Below, piece by piece: positions 31,035-42,500 of a DNA stretch of 64,000 nt. Numbering within the stretch: the stretch's first letter is position 1; each line of letters begins with the position of its first letter. A program made the position numbers and the translations under genes. The stretch comes from an uncultured bacterium (GTDB taxonomy: Bacteria; Chloroflexota; UBA5177; JANWHV01), in assembly GCA_963827235.1 (NCBI GenBank), contig CAWHAE010000009.1:480001-544000 (forward strand), in the 5' to 3' direction. A model generated the notes under the pieces. That model saw nothing but the letters and a program-made list of their open reading frames with translations. It searched no databases and was not told the DNA's origin.

Positions 31035-33298
31035 ATGGTGCGAAGGTTACTGTCGTTCTACATGACGGCCTGTGCCTGGATCGTCATTCTGCTCCAGGCG
31101 CTGTCGCCTTTCCGCCGGATCGAGTTTTGGCCGGTGTTGCTCGGCGTGCTTGCCGGTATGGCCGTGCCGGCCAGGATCTGGCTGCCGTCACCGGGTACCT
31201 GGCGAGCGTGGGTTCGCGCCCGGTGCACTGCCGCCGGATGGCGTGCCCTCGTGGCGCCGGCAAGCCTGCCCTTCCTGCTCGTCCTGCTTCCCCTCGCCAT
31301 CCTCATGATCGTCCAGGGCTGGCATTTTCCGCCCAACGACTGGGATGCGATGACCTACCATCTGGCCAGGGCCGCCTACTGGATGCAATGGCATTCGCTC
31401 GCCCACTACAACACGAACTCCTACATGCAGGTTGCCTATCCGGGCAACGCGGAGGCGCTGTCCTGTGCGCTGCTCGTGCTCACCCGGTCCGTCCGGATCG
31501 CTTATCTCGTGCAGGTAAGCGCGTACCTCGCCGGTACGCTCGCCATCTACGGCCTCGGCAGGCAGCAGGGGCCCGCCCGGCCTACGCCCTGTTCGGGGCG
31601 GGGTTGTTCGCCACCATGCCGGAGATCGTGCTGCAAAGCAACGGCACAGGCGTGGACATTACCGCGGCGGCGTTCGCCGTATCGTCCGCGTTCTTTCTGG
31701 TGGATTCGCTCCAATGTCACCGCAGGTCGAGCATCCTCTGTACCGGCCTGGCCGTTGGGCTGGCGCTTGGCACCAAGTCGACCATCGCGCTGGCAGTACC
31801 CGGCCTCGCCGCCGGCGCAGCAGTGCTCCTCCTGCACCAGACGCACCACGCGCTGCCACCGCGGCGTACCCTCCTCACCCTGGCGCTGGCCGCGGCGGCG
31901 GCATCGCTGCTTGCCGCGCCATGGTACGTCGAGAACTTCGCCGACTTCCACTCTTTTGCCGGACCGCCGCAGGTTGCTCGCCTCCAGCTTGTTTCCCAGC
32001 CGACGGTGGCCACTCTCGGCGTCAATTTGCTGCGCCATCTTATCGCCCTGATCGATCCGGCCGGACCGGGCATGGTGCTCCCGGCGGCTGGCGATTGGCT
32101 GTACCGGCACGTGGGAGACCTGCACTCGTGGCTCGCGACGATCACCGGCGCGAGCCACTCCAGCCCTGCCCTCGATTGGCCGGGCTGGTCATATTCGGCT
32201 GCCGTGTTTCCTCACTTCAATGAGCTCAGGACCTGGTTTGGCTTTACCGGCGGGCTGGCTGTGTACGGAGCACTTGCCGCTGCTCTCTGGGCCGCGCTCC
32301 GCCGCCGGGCAGGTATTGCCGCCCTCTGCGCCGCGGGGGCGACCTCGTTCCTGTTGCTCACTGCTCTTCTCTTGCGCTGGCAGCCATGGCAGGGGCATCT
32401 CCTGGCCACCCTGCCGGCACTCTGCTGCCCGGTCATTGCCGTGGCCGCGGATTGGTTGGCGGCGTGTCGCGCCGGCTCCTTGGTGCTGTGCGCGGTCGCC
32501 ATGTACGCAGCGGCGGGTGGACCAACCGCCGCCGTGCTCAACCAGCAGCGCCCGCTCTCCGCCTGGACGGAGAGCTACGACGACCAGCAGGCGGCATGGT
32601 TCACGCAGATCACACCCGTGCTCACGGCCGCAGACCGCCTGCTGCCGTCGCAGGCGCGCGCCGGCGTGCTTTTCCCGAGCGCCGACAACAACCACTGGGA
32701 GCTGCCGTTCTTCGGCCCGAATCTGACTCGCACGCTCATACCGATCAGGCTCCCGGTGAGCGCGGGAAGCTACCCCGGAGCGGCGCCTTTCAGCTATGCC
32801 GCGCCCTTTGGCTACCTGATCACCCAAGCTTCGGACGACATCGTCGCGGAATTCTTCGCGCGACAGCCTGCTTTGCGCTGCCTCACGCTCGCACGGGTGA
32901 GCGCAGGGTGGCTCGGCCCATACGTGTTCTACCGCTGTACCGGAGTCACGCGCGACATGCTCTATCGCGCGGCGATCGGCGACCAGAATGCCGGCGACTT
33001 CTCGGACGATCTCGTGCAGCTGGACGAGATCGCGCGCGCCGATCCGACCTATCAGCAGCTTCTCTTCGCCCGCGGCTGGGCGGAATGGAACCTGGGCCGG
33101 CGCGCGGACGCCATAGCCGACTATCGCGCCTATTTGCGGATGCATCCGGACGATGCCCAGGCCCAGCTTAACCTGGGCTACAGCTTTGCCGTGATGAACC
33201 GCTGTAGCGAGGCAATTGGGCCGCTCCGGAAGGCTCTCGAGCTACGGCCATCGTGGCAGGCCGCGCGCCGGGATCTTGCCGTATGCGGGGTCAAGTGA
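31035..33298 (+). CDS. GT-C type membrane glycosyltransferase-like protein with C-terminal TPRs, frameshifted near 31570
   Basis: PPNDWDAMTYHLAR..YW in the first frame; MPEIVLQS, GLALGTK, APWYVEN and C-terminal TPRs in the second frame. Confidence 0.7.
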
Positions 33299-33564
33299 GT
33301 CTGATTCAGTGCAGCTTGTATCAGGCGTGGTCGCCAATGAGCTACGGGTTACCAGGCACCCGCGTTCGAGCGGGCACCGGCCACGCGTGGATCTACAGAC
33401 AGTGCGGTGTCACGAAAGGGCTGCCTGAATGGAGAGGTCCGTCGAGTGCGCCATCCCTGTCCCACCGGTCCTACCTTACACTGTATGCTGAGAATCGAGG
33501 CCGGGAAGCCGCCGGGCGCGCCCGGCGAAGCACCCTCAGCCGCGGATCGAGGCACGACGACGCC

Positions 33565-35229
33565 ATGCAGAGTACCTGTAGCCATTGCGGAGCAACGGTA
33601 TCGGGCAACCACCGTTATTGCCCGGTCTGCGGCGCCCGCCTGGGTGGTCCTGCGCCGGCGGCGCCGGTGCGGCGTCCGAGTGCGGTAGTACCCGGCGCGC
33701 CGGTCGGCGGCGGCCTCGTGCTGGGCGATCGGTATGCGGTCGATCACGTGCTCGGACGCGGCGGCATGAGTACCGTCTACCGCGCCTACGATACGCACTT
33801 CTCCAACCGCGTGGTCGCCGTGAAGGAGATGGTCGATACGTTCGCCACGCCCGAGGAGCGCGCCGAAGCCGAGCGGGACTTCTTGCGCGAGGCGGATCTG
33901 CTGGCAGGTCTCCGCCATGCCGCCATTCCCGCGGTCTTCGATCGCTTCAGCGCCAACAGCCGCCACTACCTCGTCATGGAGTACATCGCCGGGGAGAACC
34001 TGGAGAAGGCAGTGGCGGCGCGTTCCGAGCCTTACTCGGAGGTGCAGGTTCGCACCTGGGCGCAGGCACTGTGTGGCGTGCTGCGTTACCTCCACGATCA
34101 GCAGCCTGCCATCATCTTCCGCGACCTCAAGCCGGGCAACATTCTCGTGGAGCCGGGCGGCCGCCTGCGGCTGATCGACTTCGGCATCGCTCGCTTCTTC
34201 AAACACAGCCAGACCACCGACACTACGGCCCTTGGCACGAGCGGCTATGCATCACCGGAGCACTACACCGGACAAACCGACGCCCGATCCGACATCTACT
34301 CGCTGGCAGCAACCATGCACCATCTGCTGACCCTGCGCGATCCCTCGCGGCAGCCTCCCTTCCAGTTCCCGGCCGTGCGAAGCCTCAACCCGGCCGTCTC
34401 GCCCGAGCTGGACCAGATCATCGCCAGGGGATTGGATCCGGATCGAGGCAAGCGCTTTGCCAACGTGCCCGAGTTCGAGGCAGCGTTGCAGGGCAAGGCG
34501 CGCCCGGCCCGCCAGAGGCCCGCCGCAGGCGGCGGTCCCGGGAATACTGCCACGGCAGATCCGGCGCAGCCTGCCGCTTCCCCGATGAACGGAAGCAAGC
34601 AGGCGGCCGCCACGACCATGCTCATGCCCGGAACGCTGGTGCTGGTGATCACCCGCGTCCGGCGTGGAGCCGATCTGAACGCCGTTGCCAACGAGATGGC
34701 GCCGCTGACCGACCAGACTCCTCCCGAGGCGCAGCAGCTACTGCGCCGCCTGCCGGTGGTGACCCCGCTCGCGACCATCGCCCAGCTCGGCACGCGGCTC
34801 AAGCGGCTTCGCGAGCTGGGAACTGACGCGCAGCAGGTAGTGCCTGCCACCGAGTCGGTCCACCTCGACCCCACGCTGAGACAGGAGCTGCTGACCAACC
34901 ATCAGATCGTGATCTGGGACGTCAAGGTCGGCGCCGGGCGCACCTGCTACTGCCGGCGCTGCGGGCATCGCTGGTTGACCAGCAAGGCGGTGGGCGATAG
35001 CGTGCCACAGCAGTGCTATCGTTGCGGCGCCAAGGACTGGAGCCGGCGTCGCCTCTGCAAGTGCGCCTGGTGCGGTCACGAGTTCGAGGTGCACGACTAC
35101 CGGCAAAGTCCAGATCGGCTGAGGCCGGTGTGCGAGTGCTGTGGCTTGCGCGACTGGCTGCTGGGCCGCAGGAGCGGCTGGCAGGGCCTGGTGCAGTCGT
35201 TCCGCGAGCTGCTGGGATTGCCCGGATAA
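33565..35229 (+). CDS. Ser/Thr protein kinase with N-terminal zinc ribbon and C-terminal L7/L12-CTD-like plus zinc-ribbon region
   Basis: CSHC..YCPVCG; LGRGGMSTVY, VAVKE, FRDLKPGN, DFG, GTSGYASPE; four C-terminal CxxC motifs. Confidence 0.9.
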   Translation: MQSTCSHCGATVSGNHRYCPVCGARLGGPAPAAPVRRPSAVVPGAPVGGGLVLGDRYAVDHVLGRGGMSTVYRAYDTHFSNRVVAVKEMVDTFATPEERAEAERDFLREADLLAGLRHAAIPAVFDRFSANSRHYLVMEYIAGENLEKAVAARSEPYSEVQVRTWAQALCGVLRYLHDQQPAIIFRDLKPGNILVEPGGRLRLIDFGIARFFKHSQTTDTTALGTSGYASPEHYTGQTDARSDIYSLAATMHHLLTLRDPSRQPPFQFPAVRSLNPAVSPELDQIIARGLDPDRGKRFANVPEFEAALQGKARPARQRPAAGGGPGNTATADPAQPAASPMNGSKQAAATTMLMPGTLVLVITRVRRGADLNAVANEMAPLTDQTPPEAQQLLRRLPVVTPLATIAQLGTRLKRLRELGTDAQQVVPATESVHLDPTLRQELLTNHQIVIWDVKVGAGRTCYCRRCGHRWLTSKAVGDSVPQQCYRCGAKDWSRRRLCKCAWCGHEFEVHDYRQSPDRLRPVCECCGLRDWLLGRRSGWQGLVQSFRELLGLPG

Positions 35230-37741: not shown

Positions 37742-38427
37742 ACGCCACAGAGCTGCTCGCGCAGGGCGGAGAGCGTGATTCAACGTCCGCCGATCCCGTG
37801 CTCAGCCACCTATTGGAGCGGATGCTCGAGGCGAGCCAGGGCAACGCCGACCAGTTGATCGGCGCCGTGCAGCGGGTGACGCGCGAGCTGTCCTCGCTCA
37901 CCTTCAATTTCAACGGGCACGCCATTCGCTCCGGCATACGCAGCGCTGAGCTGCAGGCTCTCGACCATCAGCTCGACGAGGCGAGCTCCGTGCTCAATCG
38001 CACCGTCTTCGATCTGCAGCAGCGTCTGCTTCGCGACAGCCAAACCTTGCAGCCGCTCACGCGCATCTTCGAGGTCGTCGATCTCGAAGATGAGCGACCG
38101 GCACCTCTACGGCTGCGCGAGCGGATTGATGGCTACTGCGAGGCGCTCGAGCGGGAGTACGAGGGCATCCGCGAGACCCTGGCGGCGTTGAGCTTCCGCC
38201 TGGCGCTGATGGGCAACAACATCGAGATCGCGGCCTGCCGGGCCGGCAGCGCGGATGTCTCCGCGCCCGTCGATCTCTTCTGCGTGATGGCCAACCAGCT
38301 CCGCTTACTGGCCGACCGCTTGAGAAACGCTACCGCCGATCTGCGCATCTTCCAGCAGTCGCAGAACGGCTATGCCGAGTCACTTCGGGTGACCCTGGCC
38401 AACTACAGTCGGGGGACGGCAGCGTGA
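37738..38427 (+). CDS. Soluble MCP-signalling-domain-like protein
   Basis: LALMGNNIEIAACRAG...FCVMANQLRLLADR resembles LLALNAAIEAARAG...FAVVADEVRKLAER; stop/start overlaps with both neighbours. Confidence 0.6.
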   Translation: MNATELLAQGGERDSTSADPVLSHLLERMLEASQGNADQLIGAVQRVTRELSSLTFNFNGHAIRSGIRSAELQALDHQLDEASSVLNRTVFDLQQRLLRDSQTLQPLTRIFEVVDLEDERPAPLRLRERIDGYCEALEREYEGIRETLAALSFRLALMGNNIEIAACRAGSADVSAPVDLFCVMANQLRLLADRLRNATADLRIFQQSQNGYAESLRVTLANYSRGTAA

Positions 38428-41400
38428 GTGATTCTGTAGACCGCCTGCAAGCAGCCCTGGCGGCGGCGCTGGCCGCGCCGCCGGCCGCGCCGGGCAGCCC
38501 CGAGGAAGAGGAAGGCGCCGACATCGCCACGCCGCGCGCCAAGGCTGCCTCGGCTCTTGAGGCCGCCCTGCGCGATCGCCTGGAATGGCACTGGGACCGC
38601 GATCAGCACCAGGGCGAGCAATTGTGCCGCGTCCTGGCAGACATGTGCATGTGGCATGAGCACACCACGCTGCGCGACAAGGTGCTCGATCTGCAGCGCA
38701 AAGGCATCGCCTTGCTCGCAGCCGTTCCCGATGGGGAGCCGAGCGCGGGCGACGTGGGCGATATCGAAGACGAGTATCAGGCGATAAAGCCGCGCGAGGA
38801 TGACGCAGCGGCTATTGCCGCCGCGCTCGGCATGACGCTGGAAGAAGCGAAGGCGTTCGGCCTCGTGGGTACGCTCACCAGCGTCGGTTTCGAGGAAGAA
38901 GGACCGGTTCCGGTCGCAGCGGGCGTCTCCGCCGAGGCCGAGCAGCCCGAAGAGGATCTCGAGACGCTCTTCCGGCGCGAGGCAAAGAACCGCGCCTCCA
39001 AGGATCTGCCGTCTGCCTTGCAGAATTTCTGGGGCAATCAGCAGTCGATGGACCTCATGCTGACGGTCCGTCGCGGCTTCCACACGATCAAGGGCGACGC
39101 CCGCATGACCGCGGTCTCCGCTCCTCCGGAGGTTGCCGAGGAGCTCGAGGGATTGGCGGTGCTCTCGGAAGCGGCGGAAGACATCGTCGACTACTTGCTC
39201 GGCGATGACTACGATCCGTCGCAGCCCGCGCCTCCGCTGCCTCCCGGCGCCTTCAGCCTGATGAACGAGGTCGCCAATGCCCTCGTTCGGCGGCTCGAGC
39301 TACGCCGTCCGCTGGACAATGAAGTTACCCTGCTCAAGCGGCTGGCTGCTATGCAGCGGAAGGCCGCGGCGCAAGCCGGCGTGGTGATCGACGAGGCGTC
39401 GCTGGCCGCCAAGATCCCGCTCCCCACCATGCCCGCCGCAGCACCGAAGGTGCAGCGGCAAGAACCGGTTTCCACCACGGGACATTCACTGCTGCCCACC
39501 TTCTTGGACGAGGCGAAACGCTTGATGCCCGATCTGCATCGCGCTCTCGGCATTCTGAGCACCACGCCGTCCGACGAAGCATCGCTGCTCCTGGCTCGCC
39601 GCAAGCTGCACACCCTCAAAGGTGGCGCTGCCCTCATTGGCGCTGAGGCGGTCGACATCCAGATGATCGCGCATCATGCCGAGGATCTCTTCGAGCTGAT
39701 CGAAGACGTCCAGCTCCGTGGCGAGCTGAATGAAGTGCCGAAAGATGTGCTCGACGGTGTGCTCGACGCCGAAGACGCCCTGCAGACTCTCCTGGATAAC
39801 CTGGAGCATGTGAACTCGGGCGGGCGCAGTCCCGTGCAGCCGCTGCTGCAGGATCCGGCGGAGCTCGTCACGCGTCTCCAGCAGATCACCGAGCGCGTTC
39901 GCACCGGCGACGTTGCACCGGCGGCGCCTGTGGCCGTGTCCGAGGAGCCCGCCGCCATGCCGGCGGCCAAGGCGGCCGCGCCAATCGCGGAAGCGGGCGC
40001 CGAAGTACCGGCGCAACCGATCACGGACCCTGCTCTCTTGCAGCGCGTGGTGATACCACCGCCGGTCGCACGGCCGCCGGCTCGCATGGTCAGCCTGCGC
40101 GACCTGAGCTTCCGGCGGTTCATCGAGAAGAGCGAGCAGGGCCAGGTGCGCAGCCGTACGGCCGTGATCGACCGCCTGGCAGCCGTCGAGGAACGCGCCC
40201 GTATGACAAGCGGCGCGTTCTCCCTGTTCATCGGCGTGCAGCAAATGTCCCAGTATATAGAGGAGCAGGCCCGATATCACGATCTGGTTGGCGAGAAGGG
40301 CCAGCTCTACATCTTCGGCGCGCTCGACCAGGTGCCGTCGCCCCTGTCCCGCGTTACCCTCGTGCCGCTCGTCGAAGGCGACGAGCTGCTGCGCGAGCGC
40401 TTCGCCATCTTCGAATCGCCGGAGTTCAGCACGGGATTCGTCGCCCATGACACTGCCGACGACGTAGAGGGCAGCGGCAGACGCTTCCTTTGCCTGGCGA
40501 TCGAAGAACACGTGACCCTGGCCGAGATGTCGGACCTGCTTCGCACGGCCATCCGCCGCGGTGGCGCCCTGGTGGCGGCGAGGCGCACGGCGCTGCACAG
40601 CATGTCGGCGCTCAAGCCGCTGCCTCGGCTGCAGCCGCCCATCACCCGCCGGGACCGCGCACTGCCGGTAGAGATCACGCCGCGGCGACAGCAGGACTTT
40701 GGCAAGGACGTCAGCGTGCGCAATGCCCTGACGGCGCTGGAAGATCTCTCGGTCACACGCGACTCCCTGCAAGGCCTCGTGACGCGCATGTCACAGCAAC
40801 GCGTAGAGGGTCGTCGCAGCGGCGTGCGCCTGCGCACACTGATCGAGCGGGTGGGCTCGGAGCTGGCAGGTCTGCGATCGGAGCTGGTGCGCACGACTCG
40901 CCGCACTGGTGATTGGGATCTGCTTGAAAAGGAAGAGTTCACCACGGTCGACGTGCTGCTCGGTCAGCTCGACGAAGCCCTCGCCGACCTCGAGGAGTCC
41001 GACACTAACCTGCGTCGGGATCTCGCCGAAGCGACCGCGCAGGTCGAGATCCAGGCCGACAAGGCGCTGAGCGCCCAGCGCGCTCTGCTCGATATCAGCA
41101 TGATTCCGCTTTCGCAGATCAAGGATCGTTTGGCCCATGCCGTGCGCTCCGCCAGCAGGCGGCTGCGCAAGCAGGTCGAGTTCGCGCTCGAAGGCGGCGA
41201 TCTGGTGCTCGACGGGCGGATCGCCGAGGCCGTGTTCGAGCCGATCATGCACCTGATCAATAATGCGCTCGACCATGGCATTGAGACGAGCACCGGTGAG
41301 CGTGTCGAGGCCGGAAAGACGATCGAGGGTCACCTGACCATCCGCGGGCGCTCCACGGGCGACGGCGTGGCTATCGACGTCAGCGACGACGGCCGTGGGA

Positions 41401-42500
41401 TAGATCCCGACGCCGTGGCTGCTGCGGCGCTTGGACGCGGTCTCGTTTCAGCGGACGAGATCGCATCGATGTCCACGGATGACAAGATCGCGCTGATCTG
41501 GCGGCCCGGCTTCAGCACTGCCTCCTCCGTGACCTCAATGTCTGGTCGCGGTATCGGCATGAAGAGTGCGCAGGACGCCGTGGCCGCCCTGAACGGCCGT
41601 ATCGAGATTCACTCCGTGCTCCGCCAGGGCACGACGTTCAGCATCATCTTGCCACGCTCGCTCGCCATGATGCGCGTCGAGGTGGTACGTGAAGGGCAGA
41701 ATGTGATCGCCATTCCGATCACGCAAATGGTTGCCACGCATTCCGTTCCCTATTCGGAGCTCGACGACCTCGAGCCGGGACACAGCATTCAGGCAGGCGG
41801 TAAGGAGCTGCCCGTGTTCGCGGTGACGCTTGCAGACGGACCGGCGGGCGACGGCGAGGCCGGGCGCGCCACCCTTCTGGAGGTGGCCGCCAGGAACGGC
41901 GCCATCGTGGTCGACGAGGTCCAGGGTAGCCAATACCTGCCGGTGCGATCCGCGCCGGAGTATCTCCGCCGGCACTGCGGCCTGCTTGGCTATGCCGTGG
42001 GCGGCGGCGGCCAGATCCTGCCCATACTCGACCTGCCGACGCTCATAGACCGCTCGCGCGCCCTCGTGATCGATGCGCCCAAGGCTACCGTCGCCCGGGT
42101 CGCCTACAGCATTCTGGTAGTCGACGACAGCCAGACGATGCGGCGAGCCCTTCGCGATACGCTCAGCAAGGCCGGCTTCAGCGTGCAGGAGGCAGTCGAC
42201 GGCCACGATGCGCTGAACATCTGCATACGGCAGATGCCCGACTTGATCACGCTAGACATGGAGATGCCCGGCATGGACGGCCTGGAGGCACTGACGGCGC
42301 TACGATTGCTGCCGAACGGTGGGGCTACCGTGCCCGTGTTCATGATCACCTCTCGCCAGCAGGCGCGCCATCGCGCCGCCGCGCTCGCCGCGGGCGTTAC
42401 GCGGTACTTCACGAAGCCCTTCGATACAGACGAGTTGCTCAGCGCCACGAATCTGGTGCTGGCCGAAGGCACCGGCCAGGCGCGGGAGGTGGCGTCATGA
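38424..42500 (+). CDS. cheA: Hybrid CheA-like histidine kinase (Hpt-Hpt-DICT-like-dimerisation-HATPase-CheW-REC)
   Basis: RRGFHTIKG and RRKLHTLKG; HLINNALDHGIE, DDGRGID, PGFSTA...SGRGIGM; ILVVDDS...LDMEMP...TKPF. Confidence 0.9.
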   Translation: MSDSVDRLQAALAAALAAPPAAPGSPEEEEGADIATPRAKAASALEAALRDRLEWHWDRDQHQGEQLCRVLADMCMWHEHTTLRDKVLDLQRKGIALLAAVPDGEPSAGDVGDIEDEYQAIKPREDDAAAIAAALGMTLEEAKAFGLVGTLTSVGFEEEGPVPVAAGVSAEAEQPEEDLETLFRREAKNRASKDLPSALQNFWGNQQSMDLMLTVRRGFHTIKGDARMTAVSAPPEVAEELEGLAVLSEAAEDIVDYLLGDDYDPSQPAPPLPPGAFSLMNEVANALVRRLELRRPLDNEVTLLKRLAAMQRKAAAQAGVVIDEASLAAKIPLPTMPAAAPKVQRQEPVSTTGHSLLPTFLDEAKRLMPDLHRALGILSTTPSDEASLLLARRKLHTLKGGAALIGAEAVDIQMIAHHAEDLFELIEDVQLRGELNEVPKDVLDGVLDAEDALQTLLDNLEHVNSGGRSPVQPLLQDPAELVTRLQQITERVRTGDVAPAAPVAVSEEPAAMPAAKAAAPIAEAGAEVPAQPITDPALLQRVVIPPPVARPPARMVSLRDLSFRRFIEKSEQGQVRSRTAVIDRLAAVEERARMTSGAFSLFIGVQQMSQYIEEQARYHDLVGEKGQLYIFGALDQVPSPLSRVTLVPLVEGDELLRERFAIFESPEFSTGFVAHDTADDVEGSGRRFLCLAIEEHVTLAEMSDLLRTAIRRGGALVAARRTALHSMSALKPLPRLQPPITRRDRALPVEITPRRQQDFGKDVSVRNALTALEDLSVTRDSLQGLVTRMSQQRVEGRRSGVRLRTLIERVGSELAGLRSELVRTTRRTGDWDLLEKEEFTTVDVLLGQLDEALADLEESDTNLRRDLAEATAQVEIQADKALSAQRALLDISMIPLSQIKDRLAHAVRSASRRLRKQVEFALEGGDLVLDGRIAEAVFEPIMHLINNALDHGIETSTGERVEAGKTIEGHLTIRGRSTGDGVAIDVSDDGRGIDPDAVAAAALGRGLVSADEIASMSTDDKIALIWRPGFSTASSVTSMSGRGIGMKSAQDAVAALNGRIEIHSVLRQGTTFSIILPRSLAMMRVEVVREGQNVIAIPITQMVATHSVPYSELDDLEPGHSIQAGGKELPVFAVTLADGPAGDGEAGRATLLEVAARNGAIVVDEVQGSQYLPVRSAPEYLRRHCGLLGYAVGGGGQILPILDLPTLIDRSRALVIDAPKATVARVAYSILVVDDSQTMRRALRDTLSKAGFSVQEAVDGHDALNICIRQMPDLITLDMEMPGMDGLEALTALRLLPNGGATVPVFMITSRQQARHRAAALAAGVTRYFTKPFDTDELLSATNLVLAEGTGQAREVAS

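Follow-up and report, generated by a model that had tools for sequence, protein, structure and literature searches.

Among the genes of the window analysed here, a 64,000-nucleotide stretch of the genome of an uncultured Chloroflexota bacterium (GTDB lineage UBA5177; JANWHV01; assembly GCA_963827235.1, contig CAWHAE010000009.1, positions 480,001 to 544,000 of the forward strand), is that of a hybrid CheA-type histidine kinase with an internal DICT domain. The kinase comprises 1358 amino acids (aa), and its open reading frame (ORF), at 38424-42500 (+), begins with a GTG codon; the orthologues start at the identical position. Pfam gives its domain order as Hpt, Hpt, DICT, coiled coil, HATPase_c, CheW-like and REC (Table 1). 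The initial annotation, made by eye, had placed a DICT-like segment between the second Hpt domain and the dimerisation and catalytic core. Its span, 40140-40560 (+), corresponds to in-frame residues 573-712, whose translation is the peptide quoted there, and the Pfam domain order bears out both the placement and the neighbours, with Hpt at residues 356-460 on one side and the coiled coil, HATPase_c, CheW-like and REC domains on the other.

The DICT model of Pfam (PF10069) matches residues 572-676; it scores 27.1 bits against the complete protein and 31.0 bits against an excised 213-aa segment, the curated gathering cut-off being 23.8 bits. In a six-frame search of the 7.98-Mb assembly the score is 32.2 bits, and this is the sole DICT match; the orthologues score 32.3, 27.7 and 21.5 bits. 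We also built a profile (A2) from four CheA-embedded segments only and searched it against 1.84 billion representative proteins. It retrieved 145 clusters at E <= 1e-3, and Pfam DICT was found at E <= 1e-4 in 140 of the 144 non-self clusters (70/72 and 70/72). Of the other four, P0007, P0008 and P0117 are fragments of this CheA type that carry Hpt, and P0130 has a weak GAF match only. Profile-profile alignment with hhalign between A2 and a set of 73 canonical short DICT proteins (A5) gave a probability of 99.6% and an E value of 2e-24 over 155 columns, equivalent to residues 560-714. Of the eight columns conserved in at least 90% of those 73 proteins, seven (E589, Q606, Y618, D635, L655, E658 and F660) are unchanged in each of the four embedded copies examined. 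The segment is a genuine DICT domain, and what had been recognised by eye thus holds under the Pfam and profile-profile checks.

An AlphaFold2 model of residues 548-740, based on a 77-sequence alignment, has a mean predicted local distance difference test score (pLDDT) of 90.5 and a predicted template modelling score of 0.84. We compared it in full with 48,161 solved chains and listed the best 50 matches. Fifteen chains reached a Z score of at least 8, and the top rows listed were all folds of the phospholipase-D superfamily, with rows of other folds beginning at around Z 4. TrmB leads with its sugar-binding sensor domain (Z 11.4, root-mean-square deviation 3.3, 128 aligned residues), and TrmBL2, polyphosphate kinase, FAM83B and NucT come next; Foldseek places the same families on top, only at E values of about 1e-3. 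No CheA P2 chain is among the 50 matches listed, although a family missing from this list is not thereby excluded. At the level of sequence, the DICT profile found a single match among solved structures, an insignificant one (E 0.21), and no relationship to any solved chain was detected. Neither the DICT columns with at least 60% conservation nor the consensus strings contain a conserved His or Lys; the HKD catalytic motif is therefore missing, and in this the domain is similar to those members of the phospholipase-D fold that sense ligands and are not catalytic. The structure prediction proposed as a check in the initial annotation thus gives a confident model, from which the DICT domain is predicted to adopt a non-catalytic phospholipase-D-like fold.

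That the segment might not be DICT at all, but resemble it by chance or derive from P2 by divergence, can draw on a Pfam score only 3-7 bits above the cut-off and on four sequences, the fragments P0007, P0008 and P0117 together with P0006, that fall below the Pfam thresholds. We find this scarcely credible given the hhalign result and the reciprocal matches, which effectively refute it, and neither the P2 nor the CheY-binding model of Pfam finds a match in the kinase even at E <= 1. The predicted fold is also multi-stranded and spans about 170 residues, whereas P2 is a much smaller, four-stranded domain.

Where the domain came to lie can be read from the paralogues. The genome's two other hybrid CheA proteins (L090 and L091) share 38-39% identity with the kinase from about residue 718-761 onward. 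L090 aligns to kinase residues 212-536 and 765-1341, with 228 kinase residues between these two blocks and 27 of its own, and the paralogue L087 aligns to residues 176-524 and 732-1108, with 207 kinase residues between them and a single one of its own. The same-genus paralogues have Hpt, HATPase_c, CheW and REC domains, and neither P2 nor DICT. As they span the site with 1-27 residues and no P2, DICT was inserted into a bare linker rather than swapped for P2. The initial annotation had stated that this position usually holds P2, which is true of textbook CheA but fits neither these paralogues nor the figure in a CheA census, according to which more than half of CheA homologues have no P2 (PMC10782961). 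The same source indicates that the Pfam P2 and CheY-binding models miss many P2 domains. A further genome of the genus (G003, 92% complete) has additional paralogues and no orthologue of the DICT kinase. Together, the alignments indicate that a linker-DICT-linker block was inserted once, in the ancestor of the genus, into the Hpt-to-core linker of a P2-less hybrid CheA with two Hpt domains.

The DICT-CheA fusion was found in only one Chloroflexota genus, in about nine sequences, and every orthologue that spans the region carries DICT. A word-index search returned four proteins, all of 1353-1364 aa and with the same domain layout. Among 41 related genomes, the DICT segment occurs in the window genome and in three of the four others of the genus; one further match there is a protein with DICT, a sub-threshold GAF and two B12-binding domains. 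Scanning one genome per species (185,579 species) gave 79 loci. Two of them, both in Chloroflexota metagenome-assembled genomes (MAGs), cover the N-terminal two thirds of the kinase, and the remaining 77 match it solely from residue 806 onward, without the DICT block. DICT is present in 38 of 301 Chloroflexota genomes; it lies in frames longer than 1000 aa in only four, all of this genus, the other frames being of 141-934 aa. As for scope, profile A2 sees DICT domains similar to those of this clade, and an independent fusion with a dissimilar DICT would be missed; a word-index search with the canonical DICT alignment, limited to longer proteins, gave no match, which is weak evidence. In public databases the family members go by 'chemotaxis protein histidine kinase CheA' or 'Hpt domain-containing protein'. 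The orthologue P0007 (984 aa) begins inside the second Hpt domain despite its long contig of 83.8 kb, and could be a split gene or have a miscalled start.

The eight embedded DICT domains of sufficient length for analysis group as a single clade with 100% local support. This clade may join the DICT-GAF-B12 proteins, a placement that has 90% support and carries a long-branch warning. Proteins of the latter type, about 710-720 aa long with DICT, a weak GAF and two B12-binding domains, occur in other Chloroflexota (G030 L006 1339-3408 (+); P0145), and their architecture agrees with an old suggestion tying DICT to light responses.

Within the kinase, the DICT core is 49-75% identical between the orthologues and the window protein, with ratios of nonsynonymous to synonymous substitution rates (dN/dS) of 0.21-0.39 over residues 562-728 for pairs with dS of 0.8-1.7. 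Corresponding values are 61-96% and 0.00-0.25 for the other folded domains, and 23-50% and 0.24-0.68 for the Pro/Ala linker before DICT (residues 495-555); identity in the linker at residues 729-760 ranges from 14 to 81% among orthologues. These ratios indicate that DICT is kept under purifying selection. They also bear on the idea that the DICT-coding piece is a passenger, which landed in a tolerant linker and has little or no signalling role. A site that tolerates insertions, a fusion confined to one genus, its absence from G003 and the standing of DICT as the least conserved folded domain are all in keeping with this idea. We nevertheless consider it improbable, in view of the dN/dS values of DICT, the retained signature residues, the confidently predicted fold and the presence of DICT in every orthologue spanning the region.

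Apart from DICT, the kinase has the expected parts. The Hpt score is 44.4 bits in two stretches, and the phospho-acceptor residues His220 and His396 both lie within HT[IL]KG motifs. The HATPase_c domain contains the motifs HLINNALDHGIE, DDGRGID, PGFSTA and SGRGIGM, and the acidic, Thr and Lys residues of the receiver are all in place. With the phospho-accepting histidines, the ATP-binding motifs and the receiver residues all present, the kinase looks functional. For its CheW-like (P5) domain, the cut-off of 23.5 bits is missed in the protein scan (21.5 bits) and exceeded in the six-frame search (26.2 bits). The H-kinase_dim model of Pfam found no match in the kinase. The presumed dimerisation region is modelled as a hairpin of helices at residues 761-828 and 837-892 (residues 412-479 and 488-543 of a long model covering residues 350-940), and NCBIfam CheA models cover residues 840-1209. 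For the N-terminal 178 residues, a language-model atlas pointed to Hpt- and FimL-like clusters, in each case below threshold (0.86-0.89).

Table 1. Domains of the DICT kinase (ORF 38424-42500) and neighbouring genes, in window coordinates. Identities are those to the syntenic loci L007 and L008 of relatives unless stated otherwise; 'long model' is the structural model of kinase residues 350-940.
Feature	Residues or length	Position	Strand	Evidence and remarks
Ser/Thr protein kinase with zinc ribbon		33253-35229	+	Just upstream of the cluster; syntenic in L008, 67% identity
CheW-like coupling protein	218 aa	35583-36239	+	Pfam CheW 24.4 bits (cut-off 23.5), 24.9 bits six-frame; syntenic in L008, 61% identity
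Short methyl-accepting chemotaxis protein (MCP)	384 aa	36587-37741	+	MCPsignal 36.4 bits; HAMP 21.2 bits, below cut-off of 25; 78% identity in L008
Protein of unknown family	229 aa	37738-38427	+	58% identity in L008
Kinase, N-terminal region	1-178	38424-38957	+	No Pfam family matched
Kinase, first Hpt region	about 180-300 (boundaries approximate)	38961-39323	+	Pfam Hpt; His220, HTIKGD motif at 220-225
Kinase, second Hpt domain	356-460	39489-39803	+	Best Pfam Hpt stretch; His396, HTLKGG at 396-401; pLDDT 76-91 (long model)
Kinase, Pro/Ala-rich linker	465-560	39816-40103	+	17% proline; pLDDT 24-34, no secondary structure (long model)
Kinase, DICT domain plus two C-terminal helices	562-728	40107-40607	+	Pfam PF10069, hhalign, AlphaFold2
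Kinase, proline-rich linker	729-760	40608-40703	+	19% proline; pLDDT <50 (long model)
Kinase, long helical hairpin, presumed dimerisation (P3) region	761-935	40704-41228	+	Long model; NCBIfam CheA alignment
Kinase, HATPase_c catalytic domain	941-1078	41244-41657	+	Pfam 57.3 bits
Kinase, CheW-like (P5) domain	1088-1210	41685-42053	+	Pfam CheW
Kinase, C-terminal receiver (REC) domain	1230-1341	42111-42446	+	Pfam Response_reg 97 bits; 83-96% identity among orthologues
ORF with weak CheW-like match	128 aa	42497-42883	+	Pfam CheW E 0.072; 62% identity in L007
Single-domain response regulator REC155	155 aa	42965-43432	+	Response_reg 53.1 bits; 66-71% identity in L008 and L007
Single-domain response regulator REC198	198 aa	43449-44045	+	Response_reg 62.3 bits, two stretches; 91-93% identity in L008 and L007
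Protein of unknown family, syntenic	338 aa	44097-45113	+	46-53% identity in L007 and L008

The kinase gene belongs to a cluster that is syntenic in the relatives L007 and L008. The MCP, its only chemoreceptor, has a single hydrophobic segment, an N-terminal membrane helix from residue 1 to about residue 26, a signalling domain that is short, and no recognisable ligand-binding domain. The ORF for the 229-aa protein overlaps the GTG start of the kinase by four bases (GTGA). This protein has no Pfam or NCBIfam match and an atlas search gave nothing clear; it is a possible kinase partner. The 338-aa protein likewise has no match in Pfam or NCBIfam. No tblastn match to the 128-aa ORF was found in L008, where the first response regulator almost directly follows the kinase. 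REC198 is the most conserved gene of the cluster, far above the kinase, and its Pfam match is split, which points to an insertion within the receiver fold. All three CheR matches of the genome lie outside the cluster, and no CheB domain was found among the ORFs scanned. Genome-wide, there are 14 CheW-domain matches and three CheR genes, and a different contig carries flagellin genes adjacent to further che genes, so that the genome appears to encode a conventional chemotaxis system elsewhere. Only one strong match to a pilus-type ATPase was found in the genome. Outside the window, a 603-aa frame with three strong CheW matches in tandem (G000 contig C9, 959306-960733 (-)) lies near two more CheA-sized frames and a CheR gene.

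What might DICT do in such a kinase? We see about an even chance that it serves as a regulatory input, feeding a signal into the kinase. A cytoplasmic ligand or partner would occupy the conserved polar pocket (E589, Q606, R617-Y618, D635 and E658), and the occupied, tethered DICT would alter the access of the Hpt domains to the ATP-binding domain. As DICT is tethered and not rigidly coupled, altered reach or availability of Hpt would be the most likely route. The pairing of the two DICT copies in a CheA dimer would be one possible way; single-domain members of the phospholipase-D fold act as dimers. Phosphate flow to the fused REC domain and to the two adjacent single-domain response regulators would shift accordingly, and the DICT input would supplement or replace the cluster's single chemoreceptor, itself devoid of a ligand-binding domain. 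A more specific proposal, which we put forward tentatively and at less than even odds, is that the input is independent of receptors, the embedded DICT binding a metabolite of the cytoplasm, or a signal linked to light or to a cofactor, and gating phosphotransfer.

Several observations weigh against an input role for DICT. Of the folded domains of the kinase it is conserved least, and a long stem branch, of 1.48 changes per column, leads to its clade. In the four embedded copies the EWF motif reads ERF (three copies) or ECF (one), Arg or Cys standing in place of a Trp that is 96% conserved among canonical members, so the pocket may have changed. According to a review, DICT domains in general have neither a known ligand nor a known function (PMC8846402). 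The linkers of 96 and 32 residues on either side are poorly conserved, consist of proline to 17-19%, compared with 2% in DICT, and have low pLDDT values in the long model, which is poor (four sequences, mean pLDDT 57) and was used only for its pattern of order and disorder. Because these flexible, proline-rich linkers flank DICT, a rigid helix relay from sensor to kinase is weakened, and a tethered module accounts for the arrangement no less well than a sensor with rigid coupling.

This leads to the main rival of the input role, in which the tethered DICT is P2-like in function, though not in fold, and binds a protein partner without sensing a small molecule. Candidate partners are either of the adjacent response regulators, the proteins of 229 and 338 aa, or another component of the cell, and docking would raise the local concentration of the partner near the Hpt domains or position the kinase. 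Linkers that hold DICT like beads on a string, as they do P2, speak for docking; so does the conservation in the cluster of two proteins of unknown family, the reading frame of one of which extends over the start codon of the kinase. The replacement of the EWF Trp in all embedded copies examined and the long stem branch would both fit a change of function after recruitment. However, no docking module is required, since the closest paralogues work with a bare site and more than half of CheA homologues manage without P2 (PMC10782961). Retention of seven of the eight polar or aromatic signature residues suggests that the ancestral pocket is still in use, and no P2 domain is among the fold matches listed. 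The most conserved candidate partner, REC198, is 91-93% identical across the genus where DICT is 46-51% identical in the same genomes, an unlikely pairing for a tight interface. On balance we regard docking as rather unlikely, while the passenger reading is less likely still.

A regulatory input through DICT would matter for how CheA is viewed. In the census, CheA is described as a histidine kinase that, unlike others, has no sensor domain and depends on chemoreceptors (PMC10782961). A conserved and selected DICT within CheA would be a natural exception to that description, and a receptor-independent input, if true, would break the rule. The DICT-CheA kinase makes it possible to ask whether a chemosensory array takes input at the kinase. 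The model also ties the poorly understood DICT family to the ligand-sensing, non-catalytic, TrmB-like branch of the phospholipase-D fold and thereby suggests concrete ligand screens. The reach of these proposals is limited to a few uncultured Chloroflexota genomes, and by the lack of a known DICT ligand.

The DICT version of the CheA kinase seems to be unrecorded. The initial annotation had allowed that such fusions might already be well described; our literature searches and the tables of the CheA census contain no description of them. In the supplementary tables of the census, 'DICT' occurs only within a species name, with the caveat that the architecture column may not list every Pfam domain (PMC10782961). 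The one non-canonical fusion given in that column is with CheC, and these MAGs may be absent from the GTDB R95 genomes on which the census is based. A literature search for sensor domains in CheA returned nothing relevant, and another found no description linking DICT to the TrmB or phospholipase D fold.

Canonical DICT proteins resemble the embedded domain in Pfam homology, profile-profile similarity, seven of eight signature columns and length, including the two helices after the Pfam core. They differ in the EWF motif, in the long branch of the embedded clade and in position. Canonical DICT is mostly N-terminal, before HisKA/HATPase_c, GAF, cyclase, GGDEF or B12-binding domains, or stands alone, whereas that of the kinase is internal (residues 562-728 of 1358); exceptions are canonical proteins in which DICT follows a partial EAL domain (P0136 and P0149) or starts later (P0096 and P0105). 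The output partners found in canonical proteins, HisKA/HATPase_c, GAF, nucleotide cyclase, GGDEF/EAL and B12-binding domains, are those expected of an input module. At the level of fold, DICT is like TrmB (PDB 2f5t and 3qph), TrmBL2 and the DUF1669 domain of FAM83B, with Z scores of 11.4, 10.6, 10.1 and 9.9 over 125-130 residues, and shares with them the absence of an HxK..D catalytic motif. Sequence identity to these folds is only 5-12%, and in TrmB the matched part, residues 110-242, belongs to a larger sugar-binding domain. With CheA P2, the domain has in common its place in the domain order, after Hpt and before the dimerisation domain, and its tethering by flexible linkers. The two differ in size, in the lack of any Pfam P2 match at E <= 1 and in the phospholipase-D-like folds that best match DICT.

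Most similar to the kinase as a whole are the multi-Hpt hybrid CheA proteins, which are ChpA-like, fall in the Tfp and ACF classes of the census (PMC10782961) and include L090 and L091. Like these, it has two Hpt domains, a helical hairpin, HATPase_c, CheW-like and REC domains, and no P2. The census figure for CheA homologues without P2 agrees with the P2-less paralogues found here. A gammaproteobacterial locus (L010) has a parts list in common with the window cluster: CheW, an MCP and a pair of single-domain response regulators, and neither CheR nor CheB seen. This parts list and the weak Hpt- and FimL-like lead for kinase residues 1-178 are no more than points of resemblance to chemosensory systems of the type IV pilus (Pil-Chp) class. 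What distinguishes the window kinase from its paralogues and from the 77 distant loci is the DICT block itself.

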